This document shows, piece after piece, positions 44,622-61,413 of a stretch of 64,000 nucleotides of DNA. The stretch lies in assembly GCA_963716935.1 (NCBI GenBank), contig CAVQUN010000002.1:1733-65732 (forward strand). Direction: 5' to 3'. Within the stretch, counting starts at the first letter, position 1. The number at the start of each line of letters is the position of its first letter. The notes under the pieces are model-generated. The model searched no databases and was not told the origin of the DNA. It saw nothing but the letters and a program-made list of their open reading frames with translations. A program made the translations under genes and the position numbers. The DNA comes from an uncultured Actinomycetes bacterium (lineage in GTDB: Bacteria; Actinomycetota; UBA4738; HRBIN12).

Positions 44622-44673
44622 GCAGGCCAGGGCCGCCGCCACCCTCGCGCGCCTAGAATTCGGGCGTCTGAGG

Positions 44674-46170
44674 ATGTCGCGTCGCGAGCCCGTCTCCGTC
44701 GGTTCGGACGCCTCCGTCGACGAGCGGACCGTCCGTCGGTTCCAGGAGGCGGGCATCGCGCTGCCGACCTTCGAGCAGCTGGCGGAGCCGGCAAAGATCC
44801 CGCAGCGGATCCGCGACGAGCTCGAGCGCATCGATCCCGACGCCGCCCATCCGCTGAACCTGTTCCGGGTCCACTGGTACAACGGGGCCGATCGGCGCTC
44901 GGTCGTCGAGGTCCCGGAGCACGTCGTCCTGGACTCGTCGCTCACGGGCGTCGATGCGCCCATCGTGGTCGCGCTCGGCGACCGGTTCCCGATGATCGCC
45001 GCGCACAAGGTGCTCGCGGCGTACGCGTGTCTCGTCCCGCGCGTGGTGGACGGCGGCTTCGACCCGACCGCGCATCGCGCCGTCTGGCCCTCGACCGGCA
45101 ACTACTGCCGCGGCGGCGTCGCCATCAGCCGGATCGTGGGGTGCCGCGGGGTCGCCGTCCTGCCCGAGGGCATGAGCCGCGAACGCTTCGAGTGGCTCGA
45201 GCGCTGGGTCGCCGAACCCGCGGACATCGTCCGGACGCCGGGCGTCGAGAGCAACGTCAAGGAGATCTACGACGAGTGCAAGCGGCTCGAGCGCGACCCG
45301 GCCAACGTGATCCTGAACCAGTTCTCCGAGTACCCGAACCACGTCGTGCACGAGATGGTCACCGGCCGCGCGCTGGCCCACGTGTTCGAGTCGCTGCGCG
45401 ACCGCGAACCGGCGCTGCGCCTGCGAGCCTTCGTGTCGGCAACGGGCTCGGCCGGCACCATCGCCGCCGGCGACCACCTGAAGGACCGGTACGGAACGGC
45501 GATCGTCGCGGCGGAGGCCCTGCAGTGTCCGACGTTGTTGCGCAACGGGTTCGGCGAGCACAACATCCAGGGGATCGGCGACAAGCACGTGCCGCTCATC
45601 CACAACGTGATGAACACGGACGTCGTCGTCGACGTGAGCGATACGGACACCGATGCGCTGAACGTCCTGTTCAACACCGACGCGGGGCGCGCGCATCTCC
45701 GCACGCGGGGGATCGACGAGCCCACGATCGCGGCCCTGGATGCGTTCGGGCTGTCGAGCATCTGCAACGTGCTCGCGGCCATCAAGACGGCCAAGCTGCT
45801 CGGCCTCGGCGCACGCGACGCCATCCTCACGATCGCCACCGACGGCGCCGGGCTGTATCGGACGGAGGTCGACAAGGTGATGGGGCGCGACTTCCCAGGA
45901 GGCTTCGGCGAGGCGGAGGCGGCCGAGACGTTCGGCCGATCGCTCGAGGGCCAGGGGACCGGGGATATGAAGCAGCTCACCGACGAGGATCGGCAGCGCA
46001 TCTTCAACCTCGGGTACTTCACGTGGGTCGAGCAGCAGGGGATCTCGATCGAGGATTTCCTGGCCCGGCGCGACCAGGCGTTCTGGCGCGGGCACCGCGA
46101 GCTCGTTCCGATCTGGGACAAGGCCATCCGGGCGTTCAACGCGCGGACCGGGCTGGGCGAGGCCGCATGA
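44674..46170 (+). CDS. PLP-dependent enzyme, fold type II (Trp-synthase-beta/cysteine-synthase-like) with N- and C-terminal extensions
   Basis: 498 aa. Central PALP-like region ([26 protein letters not shown]). First gene of a long coupled operon. Confidence 0.6.
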
Positions 46171-47504
46171 GCGTGGACCCGCCCACGAGCGTCGTCTGCG
46201 CCGGGTGCGGGCACGTTGCCGGGCAAGACGAGCCGTTGCCCTTCCGGTGCCCGAACGCCGACGGCGACGACGTCGACCACCTGATGGTCCGCGAGCTCGA
46301 CCCGACGCACGTCGTCTTCCCCGCGGACGAGGAGCCGAATCCGTTCGTGCGGTACCGGGAGCTGTTCCACGCCTACCACCTCGGACGCGCCAACGGCATG
46401 AGCGACGACGACCACGTCCACCTGGTGGAACAGCTCGACAAGGCGGTCGCGGAGGTCGACGGATCCGGCTTCGCGGAGACGCCGTTCGAACGGAGCGACG
46501 GGCTGTCCGAGCGGCTCGGGTGCGCCGTCTGGGTCAAGGACGAGACCGGGAACGTCTCGGGGACCCACAAGGCCCGGCACCTGATGGGCCTCATGGTGCA
46601 CCTCCTCGTCGCCGAGCAGGCGGGGCTCGTCGCGGGGGAGGGCGCCGAGCTTGCGATCGCGAGCTGCGGCAACGCGGCCCTGGCCGCGGCCGTGGTGGCG
46701 CGCGCCGCGGACCGGCCGATCCGGGTGTTCGTCCCGGCGTGGGCGGACGAGGCCATCCTGCGGCGGCTCAGGGAGCTCGGCGCGACGATCGAGGTGTGCG
46801 AGCGGACGGAAGGCGTCCCGGGCGACCCGACGTATCGCGCGCTCCGCGCGGCGATCGCCGACGGCGCCGTGCCGTTCACCTGTCAGGGACCCGACAACGG
46901 CCTCGCGATCGAGGGCGGCGAGACGCTCGGCTACGAGATGGTCTCCCAGCTGACGCGGGCGGGCGAGGGCCTCGATCGCCTGGTGGTCCAGGTCGGCGGG
47001 GGCGCCCTCGCGAGCGCGTGCGTGCGGGCGTTCGAGGACGCCGCGCTCCTGGAGGCACCGGAGCGCCTTCCGAGGATCCACGCGGTGCAGACGGACAACG
47101 TCCACCCCCTCGCCCGCGCCTTCATGCGCGTGCGGCAGCGCGCCGGGCACGAGGCGTCGCCCGAGGGAATCGTCGAGGCGTTGTCGTGGGCGCGCTCGCA
47201 CCGTTCCGAGGTCATGTGGCCGTGGGAGCAGGAACCGGCGAGCGTCGCCGAGGGGATCCTGGACGACGAGACCTACGACTGGGCGGCAGTCGTCGGGGGG
47301 ATGCTCGCCACCGACGGCTTCCCCGTCCTGGTCTCGGAGGACCTGCTCCGCGAGGCGAACGACGTCGCGCGCGACGCGACCGGGATCGACGTCGACCACA
47401 CGGGCTCGGCCGGGCTCGCCGGGCTGCTGGAGCTGTCGCGCCGGGGAGCGCTCGGCGCGGACGAGCGCGTGGCCGTGCTGTTCACGGGCGCGCGCCGGAG
47501 TTGA
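46167..47504 (+). CDS. PLP-dependent fold type II enzyme (threonine-synthase/diaminopropionate-ammonia-lyase-like) with N-terminal Cys-rich segment
   Basis: ATGA overlap. CAGCGH...[20 protein letters not shown] (PLP-Lys block), GGGALASA. Confidence 0.65.
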
Positions 47505-47517
47505 GAGGAGGCAGGCG

Positions 47518-48474
47518 ATGAGGAGCTTCGCGGGACGCGACATCCTCTCGCTCAAGGAGTTCGAGCGGGAGGAGTTCTTCCACATCTTCGAGGTCTGCGA
47601 CCGGATGGCGCCGATCGCCAAGGAGCGGCGGAACGCCGACCTGCTGAAGGACAAGACCCTACTTACGGCCTTCTATCAGCCGAGCACGCGGACGCGCCTG
47701 GCAACGGAGGCGGCGATGCATCGCCTCGGTGGCCACGTGCTCGGCTTCTCGGACGCGAAGATGACGCGCGCGGGCGACTTCTACCAGGAGTCGATCAAGG
47801 ACACGGTCCACATGCTCGAGTTCTACGCCGACGTCATCGCGATGCGCCACTTCCAGCAGGGCGCACCCGAGGAGGCCGCGCGGTGGGCGTCGATCCCGGT
47901 CATCAACTGCGGCGACGGCTGGGGCGAGCATCCGACGCAGGTCCTCACGGACCTGTACACGACCTGGAAGGAGAAGGGCACGCTCGACGGGCTCAACTTC
48001 CTGCTGGTCGGCGACATGCGGATGCGGACGATGCACTCGATCCTGTACGCGTTCAGCCAGTTCGACATCGTGTCCTACGTCGTCGGTCCGCCGGAGATGA
48101 CGCTCCTCCCGGAGTTCAGGGCGGAGCTCGATGAGCGGAACGTGCGGTACCAGGAGGCGGAGTCGGTCGAGAAGGTCATCGCCGAGTGCGACGTGATCTA
48201 CATGGAGCCCGTCGTGCAAGCCGACTACACGAAGGGACGGGACGAGCGCGGCGAGGCGGCCCTGCCGACGACGCCGCCCGAGTACCGGGTGACGCGCGAG
48301 CTCCTGCGCGACAAGGCGAAGAGCGACGCCATCATCCTGCACTCGTTGCCGCGGATGGACGAGCTCCCGGTCGACGTCGATTCGACGCGGCACGCCCGGT
48401 ACTGGACGGAGGCGTTCAACGGCGTCGTGATGCGGATGGCGCTGCTGTCGCTCGTCCTCGGGGCCGTCGAGTAG
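47518..48474 (+). CDS. Aspartate/ornithine carbamoyltransferase family protein (atypical: HSLP instead of HCLP)
   Basis: RBS GAGGAGG. STRTRLATE, HPTQVLTDL, ILHSLP. Confidence 0.8.
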   Translation: MRSFAGRDILSLKEFEREEFFHIFEVCDRMAPIAKERRNADLLKDKTLLTAFYQPSTRTRLATEAAMHRLGGHVLGFSDAKMTRAGDFYQESIKDTVHMLEFYADVIAMRHFQQGAPEEAARWASIPVINCGDGWGEHPTQVLTDLYTTWKEKGTLDGLNFLLVGDMRMRTMHSILYAFSQFDIVSYVVGPPEMTLLPEFRAELDERNVRYQEAESVEKVIAECDVIYMEPVVQADYTKGRDERGEAALPTTPPEYRVTRELLRDKAKSDAIILHSLPRMDELPVDVDSTRHARYWTEAFNGVVMRMALLSLVLGAVE

Positions 48475-48485
48475 ACGCGACGGCG

Positions 48486-49442
48486 ATGATCGTGAAGACG
48501 GCGGTGGTCGCGATTGGTGGGAACTCGCTCATCAAGGACACGCTGCACCAGAGCGTGCGCGATCAGTACATCGCCGCCGGCGAGACGTGCTGGCACATCG
48601 CCTCGATGATCCGCGATGGCTGGAACGTGGCGATCACGCACGGCAACGGCCCGCAGGTCGGGTTCATCCTGCGCCGCTCGGAGATCGCGGCCCACGAGCT
48701 CCATGAGGTGCCGCTGGATGTGTGCGGGGCCGACACGCAGGGGGCGATCGGGTACGCGCTCCAGCAGAACCTCCACAATGACTTCGTCCGACTCGGCATG
48801 AACAAGCGGGCCGTGACGGTGATCACCCAGACGGAGGTGTCCGCAGACGACCCGGCCTTCCAGCACCCGAGCAAGCCCATCGGCTCCTACATGGACGCGG
48901 CGCAGGCCGAACGCCGCCGGGAGCAGGACGCCTGGAGTGTCACGGAGGACGCTGGTCGCGGGTGGCGACGGGTGGTTCCGTCCCCCGAGCCCGTGCGGAT
49001 CGTGGAGGAGGACGTCATCAGGAGCCTACTGGACGAAGGGGTCGTGGCGATCGCGGTCGGTGGCGGCGGGATTCCCGTCGTCGCCGACGGCGATGGGAAC
49101 CTCCGAGGCGTCGCCGCCGTGATCGACAAGGACCTCGCATCCTCGCTGCTCGCCTCGTCGCTCGGAGCGGAGCTGTTCCTGATCAGCACCTCGGTCGAGA
49201 AGGTCGCGCTCCGCTTCGGCACGCCGGAGCAGGAGTGGGTCGACCGGCTCACCACGTCGGAGGCCCGGGGATACCTGGAGGAGGGGGGGCACTTCGCGGC
49301 GGGCAGCATGGCTCCGAAGATCCGCGCGGCGCTCGCGTTCGCTGAGGCCACCGGCGGTACCGCCCTCATCACGAACCCCGAGAACGTCGAACGTGCTCTA
49401 GCGGGCGAGACCGGCACGCGGATCTCGGGCGGCGAGGGATGA
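48486..49442 (+). CDS. arcC: Carbamate kinase
   Basis: MIVKTAVVAIGGNSL..., ITHGNGPQVG, VAIAVGGGGIPV - amino-acid-kinase family. Confidence 0.85.
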   Translation: MIVKTAVVAIGGNSLIKDTLHQSVRDQYIAAGETCWHIASMIRDGWNVAITHGNGPQVGFILRRSEIAAHELHEVPLDVCGADTQGAIGYALQQNLHNDFVRLGMNKRAVTVITQTEVSADDPAFQHPSKPIGSYMDAAQAERRREQDAWSVTEDAGRGWRRVVPSPEPVRIVEEDVIRSLLDEGVVAIAVGGGGIPVVADGDGNLRGVAAVIDKDLASSLLASSLGAELFLISTSVEKVALRFGTPEQEWVDRLTTSEARGYLEEGGHFAAGSMAPKIRAALAFAEATGGTALITNPENVERALAGETGTRISGGEG

Positions 49443-49491
49443 TGCCGACCGTGCAGGCGCGTCGACGCACCGAGCAGGGGGTGAGACCCTC

Positions 49492-52101
49492 GTGGACCTC
49501 ACGCTGAACGGGCGGGCGGTCTCGGTCGCCACGCGACCGGGGATGAGCCTGCTCGAGCTCCTGCGCGAGGAGCTCGGCGCCATCTCCGTGAAGGACGGCT
49601 GCGCGCCCGAGGGATCGTGCGGCGCCTGCACGGTGCTCGTCGACGGCCGCGCCGTCGTCTCCTGCGCCCAGAAGGCCGAGCACGTCGAGGGGCGGAGCGT
49701 GATCACGCAGGAAGGGCTCGAGCCCGCCGAGCGCGAGCGCTGGGCCGATGCCTTCGTCGTCGCCGGCGCCTCGCAGTGCGGGTTCTGCTCGCCCGGGATC
49801 CTGATGAAGGCCGAGGCGCTGCTCGGCAAGAACGAGGCGCCCACACGCGAGGAGATCGGCAAGGCGCTCGCCGGCAACCTGTGCCGGTGCACCGGCTATC
49901 TCAAGATCGTCGACGCCGTCGAGCTGGTCGCGCGCTCGCGCCTCGGCGAGCCGATGCCCGAGCCCGACCGTTCGGGGCGGATCGGCTCGCGGACGGCGCG
50001 GTACGAGGGGCGGGAGCTCGCGCTCGGCGACAAGCCGTACATCAACGACCTGACGGCACCCGGCATGCTGCACGGGGCGCTGCGGTTCAGCGGCCACCCG
50101 CGCGCGCGGCTGGTGCGGATCGATCCGGAGCCGGCGCGAGCCCACCCCGGCGTCGTGGCCGTGCTGCTCGCAGCCGACGTGACGGGGGAGCGCTCGCAGG
50201 GGCTGATCACGCCCGACTGGCCGCAGGTCGTGGCGGAGGGCGAGATCACGCGCTACGTGGGCGACGTCCTCGCGATCGTCGTCGCCGAGACCCGCCACGC
50301 GGCGCGAGAGGCCGCCACGCTCGTCGAGGTCGAGGTCGAGGTGCTCGAGCCGGTCACGGACCCGTTCGCCGCGATGGCGCCGGAGGCGCCGGCGCTGCAT
50401 CCGGGCGGCAACGTCCTGTCGACCTCGATCGTGAAGCGCGGCGACGTCGACGCGGCGCTCGAGGGCTCGTCGCACGTGCTGACCGAGACCTTCCGGACGC
50501 AGGTCATCGAGCACGCGTTCCTGGAGCCCGAGTCGGCGTTCGCGGTGCCCGAAACGGACGGGACGGTCCACGTCTCCTCACAGGGACAGGGCGTGTGGGA
50601 GGACCGCCGCCAGGTCGCGTCGTTCCTCGGATGGCCCGAGGAGCGGGTGCGCGTGACCCAGGTCTCCAACGGCGGCGCGTTCGGCGCGAAGGAGGATCTC
50701 AACGTCCAGTGCCACGCCGCGCTCGCGGCGGTCGCCACCGGCCGACCCGTGCTGCTCACGCTCTCGCGGGCCGAGAGCCTCGCGTTCCACCCCAAGCGCC
50801 ACCCGCTCACGATGACCTACACGGTGGGCAGCGACGCCGAGGGCCGGCTCACCGGCGTTCGTGCGCGGATCATCGGCGACACCGGCGCATACGCGAGCGT
50901 CGGCGACAAGGTCCTCGAACGCGCGGCGGGCCACGCGTGCGGGCCGTACCGATTCGAGGCCGTCGACGTCGAGTCCACGGCCGTCTACACCAACAACCCG
51001 CCGAACGGCGCGATGCGCGGCTTCGGCGTGAACCAGGTCGCGTTCGCGATCGACGGGATGCTCGACCGTCTGGCCGAGCTCGTCGGCATCGACCCGTGGG
51101 AGATCCGGTGGCGCAACGCTCTCGAGGTCGGCGACCGGTTCGGCACCGGCCAGATCCTCGGCGAGGGGGTCGGGATCAAGGCGTGCCTCGAGGCCGTCCG
51201 GGACGCCTACCGCGGCAGCCGCTACGCCGGCATCGGGTGCGGGGTCAAGAACACGGGCATCGGCAACGGGCTGAAGGAGCTCGGCCGCGCGATCCTTCGA
51301 CCCGAGGCCGACGGCACCGTCACGCTGTTCCACTCGTGGACCGAGATGGGCCAGGGCGTGAACACCGTCCTCATGCAGATCGTGTGCGAGGAGCTCGGGC
51401 TCACGGCCGATCGGGTGCACGTCATCGTCGACACCATGCGCGAGCTCGACACCGGCCAGACGACCGCCTCGCGCTCCACGGTGCTCGGCGGGCGGGCGAT
51501 CCAGGAGGCCGCGAAGAAGGTCCGGGCCGAGCTGAACGGCGGCCGGCTCGAGGACCTTGCGGGGCGCGAGTTCTCGGGTGAGGTGGTCGTCGACTGGACG
51601 CACAAGCCCGGGACCCCGGGCGTCGAGAACCCGGTGACGCACTTCGCCTACGCGTGGGCGGTTCAGGTCGTCGTCCTGGACGACGAGGGGCGGGTGGACA
51701 AGGTGATCGCGGCGCACGACGTGGGGAAGGCGCTGAACCCCACGCTCGTCGAGGGGCAGGTCGAGGGCGGCGTCCACATGGGCCTCGGGTTCGGCCTGAC
51801 CGAGGACTTCCCTCTGGAGGGCGGCGTTCCCACGAGCACCACGCTGAAGTCGCTCGGCATCATCCCGGCGCCGCGGATGCCCGACGTCGAGACCATCATC
51901 GTCGAGGTGCCGCAACCGGAGGGCCCGTACGGCGCGAAGGGCGCCGGCGAGATCGGGCTCGTCCCGACCGCGGCGGCCTGCGCGGGTGCCCTTCGAGCGT
52001 TCGACGGACGGTGGCGCACCCAGCTGCCGATGCGGGACTCGGCCGCCGCCGCCGCCCTCGTGCCGAGGCTGACCTCCGCCCGCCGCGCGGAGGCCGAGTG
52101 A
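49492..52101 (+). CDS. Fused [2Fe-2S]-binding + molybdopterin-binding xanthine dehydrogenase-family protein (XdhD-like)
   Basis: N-terminal CGACTVLVDG...QCGFCSPG...CRCTGY. C-terminal aldehyde oxidase/XDH MoCo domain (GAFGAKE, NNPPNGAMRGFG). Confidence 0.85.
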   Translation: MDLTLNGRAVSVATRPGMSLLELLREELGAISVKDGCAPEGSCGACTVLVDGRAVVSCAQKAEHVEGRSVITQEGLEPAERERWADAFVVAGASQCGFCSPGILMKAEALLGKNEAPTREEIGKALAGNLCRCTGYLKIVDAVELVARSRLGEPMPEPDRSGRIGSRTARYEGRELALGDKPYINDLTAPGMLHGALRFSGHPRARLVRIDPEPARAHPGVVAVLLAADVTGERSQGLITPDWPQVVAEGEITRYVGDVLAIVVAETRHAAREAATLVEVEVEVLEPVTDPFAAMAPEAPALHPGGNVLSTSIVKRGDVDAALEGSSHVLTETFRTQVIEHAFLEPESAFAVPETDGTVHVSSQGQGVWEDRRQVASFLGWPEERVRVTQVSNGGAFGAKEDLNVQCHAALAAVATGRPVLLTLSRAESLAFHPKRHPLTMTYTVGSDAEGRLTGVRARIIGDTGAYASVGDKVLERAAGHACGPYRFEAVDVESTAVYTNNPPNGAMRGFGVNQVAFAIDGMLDRLAELVGIDPWEIRWRNALEVGDRFGTGQILGEGVGIKACLEAVRDAYRGSRYAGIGCGVKNTGIGNGLKELGRAILRPEADGTVTLFHSWTEMGQGVNTVLMQIVCEELGLTADRVHVIVDTMRELDTGQTTASRSTVLGGRAIQEAAKKVRAELNGGRLEDLAGREFSGEVVVDWTHKPGTPGVENPVTHFAYAWAVQVVVLDDEGRVDKVIAAHDVGKALNPTLVEGQVEGGVHMGLGFGLTEDFPLEGGVPTSTTLKSLGIIPAPRMPDVETIIVEVPQPEGPYGAKGAGEIGLVPTAAACAGALRAFDGRWRTQLPMRDSAAAAALVPRLTSARRAEAE

Positions 52102-53450
52102 GCCTCGTACTTTCCGGCGGCACGGTCGTGACCTCGCTCGACCCGCCGGTCCTTCGAGCGATCGACGTGACGGTGGTGAACGGCCGGGTCGCGGCCGGCG
52201 ACGACCGATCCGTCTCGCCGGGCGCCGAGAGGATCGACTGCACCGGCTGCCTGGTCGTCCCGGGGAACGTCTGCGCGCACCACCACCTCTACTCGTCGCT
52301 CGCTCGAGGGATGCCGTACCGGCTCGAACCGCCGGGGAACTTCGTCGAGACGCTTCAGCGCGTCTGGTGGCGCCTGGATCGAGCGCTCGATCCCGGCTCC
52401 ATCCAGGCGTCGGCCTGGTCGGGCGGCGCGGACGCGGTGCTCGCGGGAACGACGACCATCGTCGACCATCACGCTTCGCCGACCGCGATCGACGGATCGC
52501 TCGACGAGGTCGAGCGCGGTTTGAGCCGGGTGGGAGCGCGACGGATCCTGTGCTACGAGGTGACCGATCGCGATGGGCTCGAGGCGGCGGCCGCCGGGCT
52601 CGAGGAGACCCGCCGGCGCCTCAAGGAGGATCGACGCCACGGCGGCAACGCCGATCGCCTGCACCGGACGATGGTGGGGGCCCACGCATCGTTCACGCTG
52701 TCCGACGACACGCTCGATGCCTGCGTCTCGCTCGCGAACGAGTTCGACGTCGGGATCCACATCCACGTGGCCGAGGACGAGGCCGACGAGCGGGATGCGC
52801 ACGCGCGGTTCGGGCGCCGCGTCGTCGAGCGCCTGGCCGAGGCCGGCGCGCTCACCGATCGCTCGCTCCTCGCGCACTGCGTGCACGTCGACGATCGCGA
52901 GATCGATCTGCTCCGCGACCACGGTGCGTGGATCGCGCACAACCCGCGCTCGAACATGAACAATCGCGTCGGGCGGGCTCCCGCCGTCCGACTGGGTGAG
53001 CGCGTCGCGCTCGGGACCGACGGGATCGACGGGGACCTGTTCGCGGAGTCCAAGGCCGCCTACTGGCGCGGGCGCGAGGACGATCCCTCCATCTCGCCGT
53101 CGTGGGTCATCGGACGGCTGGCGGCGGGCGCGGCGTTCGCCGCGCGCGCGTTCGACGAGCCGCTGCTCGGGCGCGTCGAGCCCGGAGCGCCCGCGGATCT
53201 CCTGGTACTCGACTATGACCCGCCGACGCCGCTGTCGGCCGACAACCTCGCGGGGCACTGGATATTCGGGCTGTCGGCGCGCGACGTTCGCGACGTGGTC
53301 ATCGACGGCTCGATCGTCGTTCGCGACCGGCGGCTCGTCCGCGAGGGCGAGGGGGAGCCCCGCGCGCATACCCAAGCGGCCGCCGAGCGCTTGTGGGAGC
53401 GGATGGATCGCATCCCCGCCCACCCGTTCGCGCCGGCGGGGAGCGAGTGA
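52098..53450 (+). CDS. Amidohydrolase (SsnA / chlorohydrolase / aminohydrolase family)
   Basis: GTGA overlap. CAHHHLYSS metal-binding HxH. HVAED, ALGTDG. Confidence 0.75.
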
Positions 53451-53451
53451 C

Positions 53452-54468
53452 GTGCCGGTGGGCTCCGAGGGGCGCGTCGCGCTGTACCTGCAGGACAAGC
53501 ACCCGATCCGTGACGGCATCCGGTACGCGCAGCGGGCCGAGGAGCGCGGCTTCGAGGCCGTCTGGCAGGCAGAGAGCCGACTGGTCCGCGAGGCGACCGT
53601 GCCGATGGCGGCCTTCGCGGCCACCACCGAGCGGATCAAGGTCGGCTCGGGCGTCGTGAACTGCTGGACGCGCAACGTCGGCCTGATGGCGGCGACCTTC
53701 GTGACGCTGGACGATCTCGCCCCCGGCAGGATGCTGCTCGGGATCGGGGCGTGGTGGGAGCCGCTCGCGACCAAGGTGGGCGTTCGGCGCGAGCGACCGC
53801 TCCGCGCGATGCGCGAGTACGTCCAGGTGGTCCGCCGGCTCATCGCGATGGAGAACGTGACCTTCCACGGCGAGTTCGTGGACGTCGACGACATCGAGAT
53901 CGACATCGTGCACGGGGATCGTTCGCCGCGACCGATCCCGATCTACCTCGGCGCCACCGGCATGCAGATGATGGAGCTCGCCGGCGAGATCGCCGACGGC
54001 GCTCTCCTGAACTACCTTGTGAGCCCCGAGTACAACGCGACGGCGATGGAGCACCTCGCGCAGGGGGCGGCGAGGGCCGGGCGCAGCGTCGACGACATCG
54101 ACCGGCCGCAGCTCGTGGTGTGCTCGCTCGACCGAGATCGCTCGCTCGCGCTCGATCGCGCCCGCGAGCTCGTGACCCAGTACCTGGGGCAGCAGCCGCA
54201 CATCGGGACGGCGAGCGGCGTCGACGCGTCGCTGCTCGAGGACATCGCGAAGGTGCTCACGTGGCCGGCCGGCCCGGAGGAGATCCGCACGGCCATGGCG
54301 CTCGTGCCCGACGAGGTCGTCCAGCTGCTCACCGCGTCCGGGACCGCCGACGAGTGCCGGGCCAAGGTGCGGGCGTACGTCGACGCCGGGTGCACGTGCC
54401 CGGTGCTGTACCCGCTCGGCGACGACGTCGAGGCCATGATCGACGCGTTCGCGGACGGGGTGATCTGA
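53452..54468 (+). CDS. LLM-class F420-dependent (luciferase-like) oxidoreductase
   Basis: GTG start 2 nt after the upstream stop. LLM TIM-barrel blocks; about 338 aa. Confidence 0.7.
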
Positions 54469-55347
54469 ATGGACGTCCTGCTCCCCGGGTCGTTGGAGGA
54501 GGCGCTCGAGCTCCGCGCGGAGCACCCCGAGGCCGTCCCGATCGCGGGCGGCACCGACCTCATGGTGGCGATCAACTTCGACAAGCTGCGCCCCGATGCG
54601 ATCCTCGACGTCTCTCGGATCCCCGAGCTCCGCGAGTGGCGCGTCGAGGGCGACGCGGTCGTCGTCGGGGCCGGCGTCACGTTCACGAGGATCCTCGCCG
54701 AGCTCCCGCAGCTCCGAGCGCTCGCGCAGGCCTCCCGCGGCGTCGGTTCCCCGCAGATCCGCAACCGCGGGACGCTCGGCGGCAACCTCGGCACCGCCTC
54801 GCCGGCGGGCGACGCGCTGCCCGTCCTCGCGGCCCACGACGCGGAGATCGGGCTCGCGCGAGTCGGCGGGGAGCGATGGCTGTCGTGGGACGCGTTCCTC
54901 ACCGGGGTGAAGGAGAACGCCCTCGCGCCCGACGAGCTCATCCTGGGCGCGCGGTGGAGCCAGCTCGACGGGCCCGCGTCCTTCTCGAAGGTCGGCACCC
55001 GCAACGCGATGGTCATCTCGATCGCGATGCTCTGCTTCGCGCTCGACCCGGCGGTTCGCGGGGTCCGGGTGGCCCTCGGCTCCGTGGCGCCGACCGCCAT
55101 CCGGGCTCCCGATGCCGAGGCGTACCTCGCCGCCGAGCTCGAGCGGGCGGGCGCGTGGGACGACCTGAGCGCCACGATCTCGGCGACGGTCGCCGACGGG
55201 TTCGCGGAGCTGGTCGCCGAGGCGGCCCGCCCGATCGACGACGTCCGCGGGACGGCCGCGTATCGGCGCCATGCGCTTCGCGTGCTGGCGCGCCGCGCGC
55301 TCGGCTGGGCGATGAACGAGCGCGCCGAAGAGGCGATGGTCTCGTGA
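54469..55347 (+). CDS. Xanthine dehydrogenase family FAD-binding subunit (CoxM/XdhB-like)
   Basis: IAGGTDLMV, RNRGTLGGNL FAD-binding motifs. Confidence 0.85.
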   Translation: MDVLLPGSLEEALELRAEHPEAVPIAGGTDLMVAINFDKLRPDAILDVSRIPELREWRVEGDAVVVGAGVTFTRILAELPQLRALAQASRGVGSPQIRNRGTLGGNLGTASPAGDALPVLAAHDAEIGLARVGGERWLSWDAFLTGVKENALAPDELILGARWSQLDGPASFSKVGTRNAMVISIAMLCFALDPAVRGVRVALGSVAPTAIRAPDAEAYLAAELERAGAWDDLSATISATVADGFAELVAEAARPIDDVRGTAAYRRHALRVLARRALGWAMNERAEEAMVS

Positions 55348-55357
55348 GGACGCGCGG

Positions 55358-55828
55358 GTGCTGATCCGCGTCCACGTGAACGACGAGTGGCGCGAGGCGG
55401 ATGCGTGGGAGGGATCGAGCCTGCTCTCTTTCCTGCGCGACGAGCTCCAGCTCCCCGGCTCGAAGAACGCGTGCGAGCAGGGCGAGTGCGGCTCGTGCTC
55501 CGTCTGGCTCGACGGCGAGCTCGTCTGCGCGTGCCTCGTGCTGGCCGCGCAGGCGCACGAGCGCCAGGTGAGCACGATCGAGGGGCTGGCCGACGGCGAC
55601 CGCCTGCATCCGGTCCAAGCGGCGTTCGTCGAGGCCGGCGCCGTGCAGTGCGGCTTCTGCACGCCGGGGTTCGTCGTCGCCGTCGCCGATCTGCTCGAGC
55701 ACGACCCCGCCCCCGACGAGATCACCGTGCGCGAGGCGCTCTCGGGCAACCTGTGTCGCTGCACGGGCTACCAGAAGATCCTCGACGCCGTGCGCCTTGC
55801 GGCACAACGCCTTCGGGAGGCGCCGTGA
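55358..55828 (+). CDS. Xanthine dehydrogenase family [2Fe-2S] small subunit (CoxS-like)
   Basis: CEQGECGSCSV...QCGFCTPG...CRCTGY. Confidence 0.9.
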   Translation: MLIRVHVNDEWREADAWEGSSLLSFLRDELQLPGSKNACEQGECGSCSVWLDGELVCACLVLAAQAHERQVSTIEGLADGDRLHPVQAAFVEAGAVQCGFCTPGFVVAVADLLEHDPAPDEITVREALSGNLCRCTGYQKILDAVRLAAQRLREAP

Positions 55829-57177
55829 CGAGGCTCCTCGTGGAGTCGTGCGAGTTCGTCGTGGCGATGGACGACGCCGGGACCGAGCTCGCGGGCGCGT
55901 CCGTGCTCGTGGAGGACGGCGCGATCGTGTGGGTCGGATCGGGGGCGCCGCCGGAGGAGCCCGACGAGCGGCTCGACGGCCGAGGCACGATCGCGATCCC
56001 GGGCCTCGTGAACACGCACCACCACCTGTATCAGGCGCTCACCCGCGCCCGGGCGCGCGAGCAAGGCCTCTTCGGCTGGCTCACCGAGCTGTACCCGGTG
56101 TGGGAGGGGCTCGACGCCGAGTGGGAGCGCGCCGCGGCGCGGGTCGGCCTCGCGCAGCTCGCGCTCTCCGGATGCACGACGACGACGGATCATCACTACG
56201 TGCATCCGGCCGGCGCCGGCGATCTCCTGGAGGTCGAGATCGACGTCGCGCGCGAGCTCGGGATCCGGTTCCACCCGTGCCGGGGCTCGATGGACCTCGG
56301 CGAGTCCGACGGCGGCCTGCCGCCCGACTCGGTGGTGGAACGAACGGACGACGCGCTCGCGCGGTCGCGCGAGGCGGTGGAGCGCCATCACGACCCGGCC
56401 CCCGGCTCGATGCTCCGGATCGCGATCGCGCCCTGTTCGCCCTTCAGCGTGACCGAGCGGCTGATGCGCGAGAGCGCCGAGCTCGCGCGCGAGCTCGGCG
56501 TGGCGCTGCACACGCACCTCGCCGAGACGCTCGACGAGGAGCGGTTCTGCCTCGAGCGGTTCGGGCGCCGGCCGCTCGAGCTCATGGACGACTGGGGCTG
56601 GCTCGGCCCCGACGTGTGGTTCGCGCACGCGGTGCACCTGGACGAGAAGGACGTCCGGCGCATCGCCGACACCCGGACGGGCGTCGCGTCGTGCCCCTCC
56701 TCGAACCTGCGACTCGGGGCGGGGATCGCTCCGGTGCGCGCGCTCGTCGAGCACGGGGCGCGCGTCGGCCTCGGCGTCGACGGTCCGGCCTCGAACGAGG
56801 CGAGCGACCTGTTCGCCGAGATCCGCCAGGCGATGCTCGTCTCGCGGGCGGGAGGCCCCGAGGCGGGCCTGTCGGCCCGGGCGGCGCTCCGGATGGCGAC
56901 GCGCGGCGGGGCGGAGGTCCTCGGGCGCGCCGACGTCGGGACGATCTCGCCGGGCGCGCGCGCGGACCTCGCGCTGTTCGCGGTCGACGGCCTGGCGCAC
57001 GCGGGCGCCGAGGCCGATCCGGTGGCGGGGCTGCTCATGGGGAGCCCGCAGCGCGTGCGGCACCTCCTCGTCGAGGGCCGCTTCGTGGTGCGCGACGGTC
57101 GGCTCGCGACCGCCGACGAGGACGAGATCGCGCGCGAGGGTCATCGCGTGGGCCGTCGGATCGCGGAGACGCGATGA
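55825..57177 (+). CDS. Amidohydrolase (guanine / 8-oxoguanine deaminase-like)
   Basis: GTGA overlap. NTHHHLYQ, HTHLAE, GVDGPASN. Confidence 0.8.
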   Translation: MTRLLVESCEFVVAMDDAGTELAGASVLVEDGAIVWVGSGAPPEEPDERLDGRGTIAIPGLVNTHHHLYQALTRARAREQGLFGWLTELYPVWEGLDAEWERAAARVGLAQLALSGCTTTTDHHYVHPAGAGDLLEVEIDVARELGIRFHPCRGSMDLGESDGGLPPDSVVERTDDALARSREAVERHHDPAPGSMLRIAIAPCSPFSVTERLMRESAELARELGVALHTHLAETLDEERFCLERFGRRPLELMDDWGWLGPDVWFAHAVHLDEKDVRRIADTRTGVASCPSSNLRLGAGIAPVRALVEHGARVGLGVDGPASNEASDLFAEIRQAMLVSRAGGPEAGLSARAALRMATRGGAEVLGRADVGTISPGARADLALFAVDGLAHAGAEADPVAGLLMGSPQRVRHLLVEGRFVVRDGRLATADEDEIAREGHRVGRRIAETR

Positions 57178-59564
57178 GCGTCCGCGTCGACGAGCGCACC
57201 CGCGGAGCCATCGGTGAGAGCGTCCGTCGGGTCGACGGTCTGCCCAAGGTCACCGGCGCGTTCGCCTACGGAAGCGATCTCTGGCACGAGCGCATGTTGT
57301 GGGGCGCCACGCTGCGGAGCCCGCACCCGCACGCCCGCATCGCGGCGATCGACGTCTCGCAGGCCCTCACGAGTCCCGGCGTCCTGGCGGTGCTCACCCA
57401 CGACGACGTCCCGGGCAAACGCACGTACGGGCTCGAGCTCGCCGATCAGCCGGTGCTGGCCTGGGATCGCGTCCTGTACGCGGGCCAGCCAGTCGCGGTC
57501 GTCGCGGCCGAGACCCTCGAGCTGGCGAAGCGCGCCGCCGCACGCATCCGCGTCGACTACGAGGTCCTGGAGCCGGTGCTCGACATGGTGTCGGCGCTCG
57601 ACCCGAGCGCGCCTCGGCTGCACGACTGGGGCAACGTGCTCCGCCACGTCCGGATCGAGCACGGCGACCCCGGCGCCGAGGCCGAGGTCTGGGTGGAGGG
57701 CTACTACGAGACCGCGATGCAGGACCAGGCGGCGCTCGGCCCCGAGGCCGGGCTCGCGATCCCGGCCGAGGACGGCGGCGTCGACCTCATCGTCTCGACG
57801 CAGTGGCTGCACGTCGACCGGCAGCAGATCGCGCCGGTCCTCGGGCTGCCCGAGGAGCGCGTCCGGATCACGCTCGCGGGCGTCGGCGGGGCGTTCGGCA
57901 GCCGCGAGGACCTCCACATGCAGATTCACGCCTGTCTGCTCGCGCTGCACACCGGTCGCCCCGTGAAGATGTCGTACGGCCGCGAGGAGTCGTTCCTCGC
58001 CCACGTTCACCGGCACCCCTCGCGGATCTGGCTCCGAACGGGAGCGACGCGCGACGGCCGGCTCGTCGCCGTTCGCGGCCGGATCCTGATCGACGGGGGA
58101 GCGTTCGCGTCCTCCTCCACGGCGGTCGTCGCGAACGCGACGACGTTCCTCGCGGGCCCGTACGAGGTGCCGAACGCGCTGTTGCAGGGCACCGCCGTGT
58201 ACACGAACAACCCCCCGTGCGGCGCGATGCGCGGGTTCGGCGCGCCGCAGGTGTGCTTCGCGCACGAGGCCAACATGGACCGGCTCGCCCGCGAGCTCGG
58301 GCTGGACCCGGTCGAGCTCCGGCTGCGCAACGCCGTGCGGCCGGGATCGGTGCTGCCGACGGGACAGGTCGTCCGCGGCAGCGCGCCCGTCCGGGACGTG
58401 CTCGAGCGCTGTCGCGACCTCGCGATGCCGCCCGAGCCCGAGCCCGCCGCGATGCGCGACCCGATGACCTTCCCCGGCGGCGCGGGCAACGTCGGCCACG
58501 GCGAGGGCCTGCGTCGGGGCGTGGGGTTCGCGCTCGGGTACAAGAACGTGGCGTACAGCGACGGCTTCGACGACTTCCACCAGGCCCGGGTCACGCTCTC
58601 GCGAGGCCCGGGCGGCCCGCTCGTCGAGCTGTACACGGCCGGCGTGGAGTGCGGGCAGGGCTTCTCGACGATCGTCACCCAGGTCGCGCGGGAGGAGCTC
58701 GGCGTCGAGGCCGTGGTGCTGCACGCCGCCGACACCGGCGTGGACTCGGCGGGATCCACCAGCGCGTCCCGGCAGACGTTCATGGGCGGTGGGGCCGTCC
58801 AGATGGCGTGCCGCGCCGTCGCGGACGAGCTGCAGGCCCGCGCGCGGGAGCGAGTGCGGCCGGCGGGGACGCTGACGCTCCGCGACGGCCGGGTCCTGGA
58901 GGACGGCGTGCCCGTCGCCGAGCTCGAGGAGCTCCTCGACGAGCCGATCGTCGCGACGCGCACGTTCCACCACCGCCCGACCACGAGCTTCGGCGAGAAG
59001 GGCCAGGGCGACATCCACGTGATGTTCGCGTTCGGCGCGCATCGCGCGGTGGTCGAGGTCGACGAGGAGCTCGGGCTCGTGCGCGTGGTGCAGCTCGGGT
59101 CGGTGCTGGACGTCGGGCGGGCGCTGAACCCTCAGGGGGTCGAGGGGCAGAGCGAGGGCGGCGCCGCGCAGGGGCTGGGCCTCGCGGTCATGGAGGAGAT
59201 CCGGCTGCGCGACGGGCACATCGCGAACGCCTCGTTCACCGACTACCTGATCCCGACGATGCTCGACATGCCCCCGGTGACGACCGCCATCGTGGAGGAC
59301 CCCGAGCCCGACGTGCCGTACGGGGCGAAGGGGATCGGCGAGGTCTCCACGATCGTCTCGACGGCGGCCGTGGTCGCCGCGATCCGCGACGCGACCGGCC
59401 GAGACCTGCGTCGGGCCCCCGTGCAGCCGGACGATATCGTCGGCCTGCGCGAGCCCGGACCGAGCCCCGCGTGGCCCCCCGAACCCGACGTGCCCGGACC
59501 GCGCCCCGTGCCCGAGTACTTCGGCGAGGGACTCGGCCAGAGCGAGCTGAGAGCGAAGGAGTGA
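57174..59564 (+). CDS. Xanthine dehydrogenase family molybdopterin-binding large subunit (CoxL/XdhA-like)
   Basis: ATGA overlap. GGAFGSRE, NNPPCGAMRGFG, GQSEGG blocks. Confidence 0.9.
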   Translation: MSVRVDERTRGAIGESVRRVDGLPKVTGAFAYGSDLWHERMLWGATLRSPHPHARIAAIDVSQALTSPGVLAVLTHDDVPGKRTYGLELADQPVLAWDRVLYAGQPVAVVAAETLELAKRAAARIRVDYEVLEPVLDMVSALDPSAPRLHDWGNVLRHVRIEHGDPGAEAEVWVEGYYETAMQDQAALGPEAGLAIPAEDGGVDLIVSTQWLHVDRQQIAPVLGLPEERVRITLAGVGGAFGSREDLHMQIHACLLALHTGRPVKMSYGREESFLAHVHRHPSRIWLRTGATRDGRLVAVRGRILIDGGAFASSSTAVVANATTFLAGPYEVPNALLQGTAVYTNNPPCGAMRGFGAPQVCFAHEANMDRLARELGLDPVELRLRNAVRPGSVLPTGQVVRGSAPVRDVLERCRDLAMPPEPEPAAMRDPMTFPGGAGNVGHGEGLRRGVGFALGYKNVAYSDGFDDFHQARVTLSRGPGGPLVELYTAGVECGQGFSTIVTQVAREELGVEAVVLHAADTGVDSAGSTSASRQTFMGGGAVQMACRAVADELQARARERVRPAGTLTLRDGRVLEDGVPVAELEELLDEPIVATRTFHHRPTTSFGEKGQGDIHVMFAFGAHRAVVEVDEELGLVRVVQLGSVLDVGRALNPQGVEGQSEGGAAQGLGLAVMEEIRLRDGHIANASFTDYLIPTMLDMPPVTTAIVEDPEPDVPYGAKGIGEVSTIVSTAAVVAAIRDATGRDLRRAPVQPDDIVGLREPGPSPAWPPEPDVPGPRPVPEYFGEGLGQSELRAKE

Positions 59565-60556
59565 GCGTGGACCGATCGACCCTGCGAGGGCGCGACTACA
59601 TCGAGACGCTGGACTGGAGCACGGACGAGATCGACGAGGCGATCGGGCTCGCCGGCGAGCTGAAGGCGAAGTTCGCGGCGGGCGAGCCGCACCGCCTGCT
59701 CCCGGATCGCACGCTGTTCATGCTGTTCCTCGACAAGTCGACGCGCACCCGCAACGCGTTCGAGGCGGGGATGACCCAGCTCGGCGGGCACGCGCACTTC
59801 CTCGATGCCGACAAGACGCAGGTCGCGCACGGCGAGAGCCCGAAGGACATGGGGATCATCCTGTCGCGGTACGGCCACGGCCTGGCCATCCGCCACGACC
59901 TCGTCCCGTACGAAGGCAACGCGTACATGCGCGAGGTCGCTCGGTGGGCCGAGATCCCCGTGATCAACCTGCAGTGCGACGTCGACCATCCGACGCAGAC
60001 CCTCGCCGACCTGATGACGCTCCGCGAGCAGCGCGGGCAGGACCTGCGCGGGATGCGGGTCGCCGTCTCCTGGGCGTATGCGCCGAGCTACGCAAAGCCG
60101 CTCTCGGTGCCGCAGGGGCTGCTCATGCTGCTGCCGAGGTACGGGATCGACGTCGTCCTCGCGCACCCGCCCGGCTTCGACCTCATGCCCGAGGTGCGCG
60201 CTCGCGCGGAGGAAGCCGCGGCGCGCGGCGGCGGGACCATCCGGGTGACCGACGACATGGACGCCGCGTTCGAGGGCGCGGACGCGGTCTACCCGAAGTC
60301 CTGGGGCCGACTCGACCTGTTCGGCGACGAGACCGCGGCCCTGGCCGACGCGGCGAGGTACGCCGACTGGATCTGCGACGAGCGGCGCATGGGGCTCGCG
60401 AAGGGCGACGCCCTGTACCTGCACTGCCTCCCGGCCGATCGCGGGACCGAGGTCACCGACGCCGTGATCGACGGCCCGCACTCGGTGGTGTACGACGAGG
60501 CCGAGAACCGCCTGCACACCGGCAAGGCCCTGATGGCGCTCACGATGGCGCCGTAG
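59561..60556 (+). CDS. Ornithine-type carbamoyltransferase family protein (canonical HCLP)
   Basis: GTGA overlap. RBS GAAGGAG. STRTRNAFE, HPTQTLADL, LHCLP. Confidence 0.85.
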   Translation: MSVDRSTLRGRDYIETLDWSTDEIDEAIGLAGELKAKFAAGEPHRLLPDRTLFMLFLDKSTRTRNAFEAGMTQLGGHAHFLDADKTQVAHGESPKDMGIILSRYGHGLAIRHDLVPYEGNAYMREVARWAEIPVINLQCDVDHPTQTLADLMTLREQRGQDLRGMRVAVSWAYAPSYAKPLSVPQGLLMLLPRYGIDVVLAHPPGFDLMPEVRARAEEAAARGGGTIRVTDDMDAAFEGADAVYPKSWGRLDLFGDETAALADAARYADWICDERRMGLAKGDALYLHCLPADRGTEVTDAVIDGPHSVVYDEAENRLHTGKALMALTMAP

Positions 60557-60603
60557 CGCCGGCGGTTCCCGCCATTCGGTCGGGTACGATGGGCGGCGCC
60601 TGT

Positions 60604-60676
60604 TGGCGGGTCGTCTAATGGCAGGACGCCAGGTTCTGGCCCTGGAAGTTGGGGTTCGAGTCCCTGCCCGCCAGCC
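60604..60676 (+). tRNA. tRNA-Gln (anticodon CUG)
   Basis: TGGCGGGTCGTCTAATGGCAGGACGCCAGGTTCTGGCCCTGGAAGTTGGGGTTCGAGTCCCTGCCCGCCAG. U1:A72, anticodon loop UUCUGGC. Confidence 0.7.
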
Positions 60677-60694
60677 GATCTCTCGGTCGCGGCC

Positions 60695-61327: not shown

Positions 61328-61413
61328 GATCGAATCATCGTCGCACGGGGTCTGGGCATTGACCATGGGACGCGAATCTCGTTACGGTGCAGGAGGGACG
61401 CGGGAGGCAGCGC

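Follow-up and report, generated by a model that had tools for sequence, protein, structure and literature searches.

We analyzed a 64,000-nucleotide stretch (the window) of contig CAVQUN010000002.1 from an uncultured Actinomycetes bacterium, in which 12 consecutive plus-strand genes at 44674 to 60556 form an operon related to the ygeW/yqeA/xdhD/ssnA urate degradation cluster. Judged from its sequence, the operon probably encodes a variant form of reductive urate degradation through 2,8-dioxopurine, with a putatively F420-dependent oxidoreductase of the luciferase-like monooxygenase (LLM) family and other candidate replacement enzymes. The window is approximately 70% G+C, so raw open reading frame lists were useless. 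Gene calls instead combined a frame plot of third-position GC with a check of start and stop codons and with a codon model that had been trained on this region. The 12 genes are listed below, with scores and cutoffs in bits.

44674 to 46170, plus strand: g1 (PLPa), a 498-aa fold-type-II pyridoxal phosphate (PLP) enzyme, CysK/CBS-like, with N- and C-terminal extensions (PALP, 38.9)
46167 to 47504, plus strand: g2 (PLPb), a 445-aa fold-type-II PLP enzyme, ThrC/TdcB/serine racemase-like (PALP, 143.9)
47518 to 48474, plus strand: g3, a carbamoyltransferase apparently derived from aspartate carbamoyltransferase (ATCase) (TIGR00670, 243.1 versus a cutoff of 236.95)
48486 to 49442, plus strand: g4, carbamate kinase (NF009007, 380 versus 266; TIGR00746, 359.1 versus 358.25)
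49492 to 52101, plus strand: g5, a fused 2Fe-2S and molybdopterin enzyme of the XdhAC/XdhD type, with no flavin adenine dinucleotide (FAD) domain (TIGR03311, 982 versus 830)
52098 to 53450, plus strand: g6, an SsnA-like amidohydrolase (NF005540, 418 versus 444)
53452 to 54468, plus strand: g7, a Mer-like F420-type LLM oxidoreductase (PF00296, 242)
54469 to 55347, plus strand: g8, the FAD subunit of a three-subunit xanthine dehydrogenase (XDH) (PF00941 and PF03450; XdhB-like, 145, below cutoff)
55358 to 55828, plus strand: g9, the 2Fe-2S subunit of XDH (PF01799 and PF00111; 43% identical to Escherichia coli XdhC)
55825 to 57177, plus strand: g10, an amidohydrolase of the 8-oxoguanine deaminase family (NF006055, 632 versus 532)
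57174 to 59564, plus strand: g11, the molybdopterin subunit of XDH, PucD type (TIGR03196, 868 versus 784)
59561 to 60556, plus strand: g12, a YgeW-family carbamoyltransferase in shortened form (PDB 3q98, E = 1e-64)

An earlier reading of the sequence (the original prediction) had described these genes as an operon of thirteen same-strand members. The operon stands, and the count is 12, which is also the sum of that reading's own gene list; a possible thirteenth same-strand gene is an upstream phospholipase C (PLC)-like phosphoesterase gene (43146/43293 to 44621), separated from g1 by a gap of 52 nt. All five of the 4-nt start/stop overlaps given before, at 46167 (ATGA), 52098 (GTGA), 55825 (GTGA), 57174 (ATGA), and 59561 (GTGA), were seen on inspection, and four of the five were reproduced in independent public gene calls of a close relative (L002). 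The gap reported as 2 nt at 53452 is really 1 nt (TGA ends at 53450 and GTG begins at 53452), and g7 and g8 abut directly (54468/54469). Proteins starting at 47518, 52098, and 53452 are present in exactly that form in a public protein collection. At the level of Pfam and NCBIfam families, the gene content agreed with the earlier list: two PALP enzymes, two members of the ornithine carbamoyltransferase superfamily, carbamate kinase, a fused 2Fe-2S and molybdenum cofactor enzyme, separate FAD, 2Fe-2S, and molybdenum subunits, two amidohydrolases, and one LLM protein. A tRNA-Gln(CTG) gene at 60604 to 60676, on the operon strand and 48 nt past the last stop codon, marks the downstream end.

Related loci were collected by a genome scan with one genome per species, which returned LLM relatives at 599 loci or more (E ≤ 1e-3, paralogues possibly included); the best 80 were examined, and 81 loci were tabulated by tblastn for homologues of the window and E. 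coli proteins. The gene order was kept at 50 to 90% protein identity in more than 20 loci from metagenome-assembled genomes (MAGs), and this conservation is far beyond chance. The core g5-g6-g7 was found in nearly all actinobacterial loci, also in those without the three-subunit XDH. In the loci with full flanks, an SsnA-like gene was present in 36/44 and a molybdenum subunit in 39/44.

Homologues of reductive urate pathway enzymes

The first descriptions of reductive urate degradation date from 2025 and concern gut anaerobes (PMC12507026; bioRxiv 10.1101/2025.04.24.650524); those two studies and a commentary (PMC12990295) define the pathway. Urate is reduced to 2,8-dioxopurine by XdhD-YgfM or XdhAC, and the dihydro form is then produced by YgfK or the PydA-like UacX; SsnA opens a ring to give ureidomethyl-hydantoin, which HyuA converts to 2,3-diureidopropionate; YgeW takes off the first ureido group with phosphate, and the resulting carbamoyl phosphate is used by YqeA to form ATP; YgeY takes off the second ureido group to leave diaminopropionate, which YgeX converts to pyruvate (PMC12507026; bioRxiv 10.1101/2025.04.24.650524; PMC12990295). 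The regiochemistry of YgeW is disputed between the two published studies (PMC12507026; bioRxiv 10.1101/2025.04.24.650524).

The predicted relationship to this cluster was borne out by homologues of four of its proteins, g5, g6, g12, and g4. When the E. coli K-12 cluster was mapped onto the window by BLASTP, YgeW, YqeA, SsnA, XdhD, and HyuA found matches, and YgeX, YgeY, and YgfK did not. Thus, g4 was 47% identical to YqeA, and g12 was 38% identical to YgeW, with E. coli YgeW (3q98) as its best match in the PDB. The g12 protein carries the inserts and motifs specific to YgeW (GNAYMREVA, NLQCDxDHPTQ, WAYxPSYxKPLSVPQG, and YPKSW) and differs by loop and terminal deletions. The pairing of a carbamoyltransferase with carbamate kinase that marks the reductive urate cluster is therefore present in g12, by its motifs, and g4, which scores above its cutoff. 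The g6 protein reached 418 against the 444 required by NF005540 and 403 against the 455.5 required by TIGR03314, with the next family at 165, and was 36% identical to E. coli SsnA over 427 aa; SsnA (IPR017700/TIGR03314) is the marker that Li et al. used for the pathway (PMC12507026). In most loci, g6 sits immediately upstream of the LLM gene.

The fused enzyme g5 has five Pfam domains and the same architecture as the Desulfovibrio aldehyde oxidoreductase 1dgj (E = 3e-95), and its gene is overlapped at its end by the start of g6. By these features, it is an XdhD/XdhAC-type FeS-Mo enzyme adjoining SsnA, and we propose that it reduces urate to 2,8-dioxopurine. A motif search for xanthine oxidoreductase catalytic residues was uninformative. 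Mapping of the XdhD specificity residue E606 onto g5 was dropped, as the region aligns poorly and no Glu is conserved among g5 orthologues. Two groupings flagged beforehand as contrary to the prediction, of the carbamoyltransferases with anabolic ArgF/PyrB and of the XDH enzymes with CO-dehydrogenase or nicotinate clades, did not refute it: g12 groups with YgeW, and, among the XDH-family proteins, g5 scored above the cutoff for fused "selenium-dependent XDH" and g11 above that for PucD, with CO-dehydrogenase models far lower.

The remaining XDH genes and g10 would feed the pathway. Of the two predicted amidohydrolases, one is the SsnA-like g6 described above, and the one called guanine deaminase-like is better named after 8-oxoguanine deaminase, whose cutoff g10 exceeds; its match to the 8-oxoguanine deaminase 7ww2 had an E value of 3e-130, and that to 3hpa was similar (approximately 1e-130). 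This enzyme would convert 8-oxoguanine to urate or, possibly, guanine to xanthine. The three-subunit XDH and g10 are accessory genes, absent from loci L005, L009, L012, L018, and L025.

Candidates for the replaced steps

No homologue of YgfK or YgeY was found in the window, as the original prediction had stated, and no homologue of YgfK, PreA, or PreT was detected by tblastn in the window or the 81 related loci, with PreA serving as a proxy for UacX. The LLM protein g7, which directly follows the SsnA-like g6, is the only other oxidoreductase of the conserved core and so occupies the position of the reductase, as had been proposed. The same prediction had put the LLM protein in the place of both YgfK and YgeY; replacement of YgfK is plausible, and the candidate for the YgeY step is instead the ATCase-derived g3.

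All of the top 17 NCBIfam matches of g7 were F420-dependent LLM classes. The nearest solved structures were those of the F420-dependent Mer (E = 3e-38), followed by FGD, hydroxymycolate dehydrogenase, and Adf, while flavin mononucleotide (FMN)-dependent monooxygenases matched far more weakly (approximately 1e-8 or worse). Unlike YgfK, g7 contains no Fe-S domain detectable with Pfam. Its orthologues include more than 120 cluster representatives that are at least 83% identical, all from metagenomes of uncultured Actinomycetota, and among the best 80 of the at least 599 loci, they are 66 to 85% identical across Actinomycetota, Chloroflexota, Pleurocapsa, and Armatimonadota. Between the types found in Actinomycetota and in Chloroflexota, the neighbors of the LLM gene (SsnA-like, g1-like, and molybdenum subunit genes) share only approximately 40% identity, which suggests that the LLM protein is under unusually strong constraint or was horizontally transferred.

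Three further genes of the window, all of them already named in the original prediction, enter the argument here and below.

61987 to 62631, minus strand: cofC, F420 biosynthesis guanylyltransferase, 1.4 kb downstream of the operon (PF01983, 104 bits)
7606 to 8979, minus strand: D-hydantoinase/dihydropyrimidinase (TIGR02033, 612 versus 393)
9537 to 10538, minus strand: LLM2, a second F420-type LLM protein (TIGR03842, 441 versus 295)

The cofC gene is syntenic in L002, and in 15/19 Chloroflexota and cyanobacterial loci with full flanks, the gene immediately upstream of the LLM gene is a cofC homologue. At the Chloroflexota locus L051, genes for the NADPH:F420 reductase NpdG/Fno (222 versus 150), CofE, CofD, and CofC are inserted at 6291 to 11002 between SsnA (505 versus 444) and the LLM gene, and the same insertion was found in approximately 15 other Chloroflexota and cyanobacterial loci, where the genes for XDH-like subunits are interspersed with YqeB-like, YqeC-MocA, and DUF6909 genes. 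The complete order at L051 is a ThrC-like PLP enzyme, GT2, a g1-like protein (43%), SsnA, NpdG, CofE, CofD, CofC, and the LLM protein (71%), followed by a YqeB-like protein, an FAD-FeS protein, DUF6909 (599 aa), a molybdenum subunit, and YqeC-MocA. No other available evidence speaks as strongly for F420 use by the LLM protein as this arrangement, which by annotation combines a route from NADPH to F420H2 with late F420 biosynthesis genes. The relatedness of g7 to Mer, FGD, and Adf, the cofC gene in the window, and the Fno and cofC/D/E genes beside an orthologue all point indirectly to F420 use by g7, and we regard it as the likely F420H2:2,8-dioxopurine reductase replacing YgfK or UacX. The substrate carbon that Mer reduces is bound to nitrogen in a pterin, and a hydride transfer by g7 to C6 of 2,8-dioxopurine would, by analogy, resemble the Mer reaction. 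The core of the earlier idea, a pathway rewired around an F420-dependent LLM enzyme, thus appears correct from homology and gene context.

The LLM protein might instead have nothing to do with dearomatization, being an FMN monooxygenase or an unrelated F420 enzyme that travels along while the true reductase is encoded elsewhere in the genome. Only 64 kb of that genome is in view, g7 passes no F420-LLM cutoff, and a minority of full-flank loci have the LLM gene without a detectable SsnA gene. We nevertheless judge this improbable, since the strong family and structure matches are all to F420 enzymes, the LLM gene adjoins cofC/D/E and Fno in Chloroflexota, and none of the 81 loci holds a YgfK- or PydA-type gene. 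The LLM gene also adjoins SsnA, and the activity of YgfK on 2,8-dioxopurine was detectable only with SsnA present, the two genes being colocalized (Li et al., PMC12507026).

The second candidate replacement is g3. Its best match in the PDB was the ATCase 1ml4 (E = 2e-70), it was 38% identical to E. coli PyrB, and it passed TIGR00670 by 6 bits. The carbamoyl phosphate site (S52, T53, R54, T55, R105, H134, and Q137, in E. coli numbering) and R167 were kept in 24/24 members of the g3 family. In contrast, K84 was replaced by Tyr in all 24, R229 was replaced by Pro (or, under an alternative alignment, by variable K/V/A/Q), and Q231 was replaced by T/S or R, so that neither of the last two is conserved under either alignment. 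Additionally, TRxQ after the β-strand has become EPVV with an insertion, and HPLP has become HSLP. The original prediction had noted HSLP in place of HCLP; the motif is indeed found in g3, where the canonical form is HPLP, and it is g12 that keeps HCLP. With the aspartate-binding residues K84, R229, and Q231 lost, g3 fails the substrate-site test for an ATCase.

The distribution of g3 is complementary to that of the hydrolytic enzymes. No locus had both g3 and YgeY or a CN-hydrolase, 16 had g3 only, 6 had one of the others only, and 1 had neither (Fisher's exact test, P = 7e-5, with related genomes treated as independent); YgeY was found in four related loci, all without g3. In contrast, g3 occurred with g12 in 16/16 loci. 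These results make g3 the likely second ureido group phosphorylase, acting in the place of YgeY. N-Carbamoyl-aspartate is a 2-ureido acid, and for this reason the simplest inference is that g3 phosphorolyzes the 2-ureido group of diureidopropionate or 3-amino-2-ureidopropionate and g12 the 3-ureido group. With both enzymes phosphorolytic, both decarbamoylations would yield ATP.

The two PLP enzymes had been predicted to resemble DpaL/YgeX, which we did not confirm: BLASTP of YgeX against g1 and g2 gave E values of 0.29 and 0.53, no DpaL model matched, and one protein is CysK-like and the other ThrC/TdcB-like. The best solved structures for g1 were cysteine synthases (E = 3e-15), and the top Foldseek matches in the PDB of its AlphaFold2 model (predicted local distance difference test [pLDDT] score, 82) were CysK, CBS, and β-cyanoalanine synthase; K112 and the loop S140-T-G-N-Y are invariant in 29 homologues. 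The g2 gene is translationally coupled to g1, and its product has an N-terminal CxxC...C motif resembling a zinc ribbon and an invariant K135; the top Foldseek matches of its model (pLDDT score, 88) were TdcB and threonine synthase, with serine racemase-like proteins also found and diaminopropionate ammonia-lyase (5ygr) ranking 43rd. Both proteins scored far below the CysK and ThrC cutoffs (70 versus 351 and 77 versus 303).

Of the 23 Actinomycetota-like loci with SsnA, the LLM gene, and at least 8 kb of flanks, 19 had g1, never with YgeX, although this contrast was nonsignificant (P = 0.17), with a single YgeX locus in the set. The g2 gene accompanied g1 in 17/19 loci and never occurred with YgeX or with a ThrC-like protein (PALP415). 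Folds of the g1 and g2 types catalyze β-elimination or β-replacement on α-amino acids. With their PLP lysines kept, g1 and g2 are credible enzymes for the conversion of diaminopropionate, or of albizziin with loss of urea, to pyruvate, and the modeled pair likely replaces YgeX as the terminal lyase module. The need for two enzymes might reflect stereochemistry (D versus L intermediates) or two substrates.

A third alternative for the terminal lyase may be a ThrC-like PLP enzyme of approximately 415 aa with a zinc ribbon, which is 47 to 54% identical across phyla and was found in L010, L014 (7368 to 8615), and 11 Chloroflexota and cyanobacterial loci; in L010 and L014, both without g2 and g3, it lies between the XdhAC-type gene and SsnA. 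The corresponding protein of L051 (PALP421) was considered as an orthologue of g2 and rejected. It passes the threonine synthase model (314 versus 303) and is only 27% identical to g2, and for this reason it and the actinobacterial PALP415 were treated as a separate PLP component.

Public names suggest a far more ordinary locus, in which oxidative purine salvage or catabolism stands beside biosynthetic PyrB, ArgF, and cysteine and threonine genes and no reductive urate pathway exists. The JGI name for the g3 cluster is "aspartate carbamoyltransferase catalytic subunit," in line with its narrow pass of TIGR00670, those for g1 and g2 are "cysteine synthase" and "threonine synthase/dehydratase," and a cytochrome P450 gene in the window suggests an aerobic organism. 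We consider this explanation very improbable. It does not account for the loss of K84, R229, and Q231 in 24/24 g3 members, for the YgeW-specific motifs of g12, or for g1 and g2 scores so far below the CysK and ThrC cutoffs; carbamate kinase and SsnA would have no role in it, and the linkage of the 12 genes is kept in distant lineages. As the ATCase model and the JGI names mislead, metabolic models built for the MAGs concerned are probably wrong at g1, g2, and g3.

Variant loci, neighboring genes, and host

Other loci combine the LLM core with enzymes of the known pathway. Bona fide YgeY, YgeX, HyuA, or E. coli-type XdhD with YgfM was found with the core in L010, L014, L024, L035, L038, L044, and L045. 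The Nocardioides-type loci L035 and L038 have the LLM/SsnA core with an E. coli-type XdhD of 969 aa, a YgfM-like FAD subunit, and a hydantoinase within the cluster, which argues that the LLM enzyme works on the same intermediates as YgfK; a tryptophanase-family β-eliminating lyase gene also lies upstream in L035. In the Acidimicrobiia loci L044, L045, L046, L075, and L082, a CN-hydrolase of the N-carbamoyl amidohydrolase type precedes g5-g6-g7 and there is no carbamoyltransferase; a true YgeX homologue is present in L045 and L044, with g1/g2 in its place in L046, and L045 also encodes an NMT1-type ABC binding protein. By gene content, this variant is predicted to be a hydrolytic form of that core. 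At least 10 relatives have HyuA-like genes within the cluster, adenine deaminase was found in 12 loci, and in the relative L165 a nucleoside ABC transporter of the Bmp type and a helix-turn-helix regulator of the PucR type are encoded upstream. Homologues of yqeB and yqeC, which are markers of the selenium cofactor, were not found in the window; a yqeB-like gene occurred among actinobacterial loci only in L017, and both genes are present in Chloroflexota-type loci.

Several observations weigh against a 2,8-dioxopurine route. The g5 protein shares no more than 27% identity with E. coli XdhD, g6 falls below the curated SsnA cutoffs, g12 falls below those of the YgeW model (242 versus 453), and the best F420-LLM subfamily score of g7 is 180 against a required 276 (Mer). 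There are two PLP enzymes where YgeX alone suffices elsewhere, and the operon itself contains no hydantoinase, the one in the window belonging to another conserved module. No homologue of the urate and purine permeases UacT, XanQ, and GhxQ was found in the window or the 81 loci. At the thresholds used, 8/44 full-flank LLM loci lacked an SsnA-like gene, and the distribution statistics make no correction for relatedness among the genomes and draw on few loci (four with YgeY and three with YgeX).

Some of these points would fit the degradation of a purine-like heterocycle without 2,8-dioxopurine, in which the LLM enzyme reduces xanthine, urate, 8-oxoguanine, or a pterin, g5 is an ordinary hydroxylase, and the later steps act on another intermediate. 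The low identity of g5 to XdhD and the missing conservation of E606 agree with such a scheme, as do the shortfall of g6, the departure of g1, g2, and g3 from the known pathway, and the activity of Mer, the nearest characterized relative of g7, on a pterin. We regard it as unlikely, though less so than the two alternatives above, because an XdhAC-type enzyme in combination with SsnA, YgeW, and carbamate kinase is what characterizes the 2,8-dioxopurine route and because the variant loci mix the LLM core with true YgeY, YgeX, HyuA, and XdhD/YgfM, which suggests the same intermediates.

The hydantoinase at 7606 to 8979 is 44% identical to E. coli HyuA, and no other gene of the window is a candidate for the HyuA step. 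It lies at 7606 to 10538 together with DUF3291 (plus strand) and LLM2, which is 27% identical to g7. LLM2 is followed by a hydantoinase orthologue (67 to 89% identical) in 26/26 metagenome loci, with a CN-hydrolase between them in 25/26; the window copy of the module has no CN-hydrolase. The module resembles a pathway of reductive pyrimidine degradation with an LLM enzyme that would replace PydA, and we found no description of it in the literature searched. The published HyuA accepts both ureidomethyl-hydantoin and 5-ureidodihydrouracil (PMC12507026), so that one hydantoinase could be shared by the two pathways; the link of this gene to the operon is uncertain.

Directly upstream of the operon and on the same strand are two tandem PLC/acid phosphatase-like phosphoesterase genes (41830 to 43149 and 43146/43293 to 44621), preceded by isocitrate dehydrogenase (icd; 40076 to 41503, minus strand). 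The order of icd, phosphoesterase, and operon recurs in the close relatives L002 and L165 to L167 and not in other loci; the PLC-like genes, absent from those other loci, were therefore rejected as pathway members. An Rfam scan found two tRNAs only and no riboswitch; a tRNA-Glu(CTC) gene lies at 38121 to 38196 on the minus strand. Across 41600 to 61500, a sigma-70 scan gave no promoter-like site, and terminator-like matches were not above those of shuffled controls, so these scans were uninformative on the operon boundaries. A 1,530-aa protein encoded at 25549 to 30141, with DUF4082, Big_5, purple acid phosphatase N-terminal, cadherin-like, and TIG domains, is probably a large surface protein.

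The cytochrome P450 gene lies at 3600 to 4763, and P450 enzymes need oxygen. The closest loci are in Thermoleophilia/Gaiellaceae MAGs, and the two observations together suggest that the host is not a strict anaerobe. The "anaerobic" label attached to the cluster by the original prediction is thus doubtful for this organism.

Proposed pathway and comparison with known systems

In the pathway that we consider probable, the three-subunit XDH (g8/g9/g11) and g10 would funnel hypoxanthine, xanthine, and guanine derivatives to urate, which g5 would reduce to 2,8-dioxopurine. With F420H2, g7 would then reduce the pyrimidine ring, a task performed elsewhere by YgfK or UacX; g6 would open the first ring to give ureidomethyl-hydantoin, and a hydantoinase encoded outside the operon would open the second to give 2,3-diureidopropionate. 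Both ureido groups would be removed by phosphorolysis, one by g12 and the other by g3 (in place of the hydrolase YgeY), and g4 would turn the carbamoyl phosphate into ATP, with up to 2 ATP per urate. Finally, g1/g2 would convert 2,3-diaminopropionate or a monoureido precursor to pyruvate and ammonia, replacing YgeX. The feeding reactions and the steps assigned to g5, g6, and g12/g4 follow from homology to characterized enzymes, and those assigned to g7, g3, and g1/g2 follow from gene context and complementary distribution.

If this pathway operates, it extends reductive urate degradation to abundant uncultured soil and groundwater Actinomycetota, with a bearing on the recycling of purine nitrogen in soil, and adds a new role to the physiology of coenzyme F420. 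It is reasonable to predict that this version of the pathway may tolerate oxygen, since g7 without the Fe-S clusters of YgfK could make this "anaerobic" route usable in aerobes; an Fe-S-free reductase might also ease use in engineered uricolytic strains. Three cloneable enzyme hypotheses emerge: the reductase activity of g7, the carbamoyltransferase specificity of g3, and the lyase module g1/g2. A bolder and rather speculative extension is that F420 serves as a general reductant for nucleobase dearomatization in soil Actinomycetota and Chloroflexota, with the Fe-S-free g7 acting on purines and LLM2 doing the same for pyrimidines in place of PydA, 2 ATP gained per urate through g3 and g12, and the new PLP pair finishing the route.

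Compared with the E. coli cluster (PMC12507026), the operon has homologues of SsnA (36%), YgeW (38%), and YqeA (47%) and a fused XdhD-type enzyme, and a homologue of HyuA (44%) is encoded elsewhere in the window. The logic would also be the same: reduction, dearomatization, opening of two rings, removal of two ureido groups, and a PLP lyase leading to pyruvate. However, E. coli has YgfK, a dedicated YgfM subunit, YgeY, YgeX, and UacT, whereas this operon has an LLM protein, an ATCase-derived transferase, and two other PLP enzymes; it also contains XDH and 8-oxoguanine deaminase, and g5 belongs to TIGR03311 and not TIGR03313. Clostridium sporogenes (Liu et al., bioRxiv 10.1101/2025.04.24.650524) likewise has a fused XdhAC (DOPDH) without FAD and a separate XDH that feeds urate, with ATP formed through YgeW/YqeA, but it relies on selenium-dependent enzymes (SelD and YqeB/YqeC) and an NADPH-using YgfK.

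Individual proteins invite further comparisons. PyrB and g3 have the same fold, length, carbamoyl phosphate site (STRTR, R105, and HPTQ), and R167, while g3 differs in its Tyr at K84, its EPVV and insertion for TRxQ, its HSLP for HPLP, and its position beside carbamate kinase in a catabolic operon. Mer (PDB 1z69, 1f07, and 8qpl) has the same TIM-barrel LLM fold as g7 and transfers a hydride from F420H2 to an N-adjacent carbon in a fused pyrimidine heterocycle; however, g7 reaches only 180 of the 276 bits required for Mer, its context is purine catabolism, and the host is no methanogen or methylotroph. The Pyd pathway (PydA, PydB, and PydC) likewise proceeds by dearomatizing reduction, ring opening by an amidohydrolase, and decarbamoylation, and the window holds LLM2 and a dihydropyrimidinase; PydA is a flavin/FeS enzyme, and an LLM enzyme would take its place here. 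A loose precedent comes from mureidomycin, for which a putative F420/FMN reductase acting on the C5=C6 bond of uracil is described.

The replacement of YgfK by an F420-dependent LLM enzyme, although likely here, is not new. Li et al. (2025, PMC12507026) proposed it for Chloroflexota in a remark drawn from a neighborhood network, and, apart from the loose precedent just named, theirs was the only report retrieved from the literature searched on links of F420 to urate, ssnA, carbamate kinase, or dihydropyrimidinase. That network colored any PF00291 protein "YgeX" and any PF00185 protein "YgeW" (PMC12507026), so g1, g2, and g3 are indistinguishable in it. In the literature searched, we found no account of a second transferase derived from ATCase, of the two PLP enzymes, of F420 supply genes within the cluster, of the arrangement in Actinomycetota, or of the range of soil phyla involved. 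The Chloroflexota type has the same LLM orthologue, 66 to 74% identical to g7, beside SsnA, and the proposal made for it was an F420-dependent yanthine reductase. It differs in having Fno, cofC/D/E, YqeB/C, and DUF6909 and usually no carbamoyltransferase nearby, whereas the operon described here carries two carbamoyltransferases, carbamate kinase, and g2.

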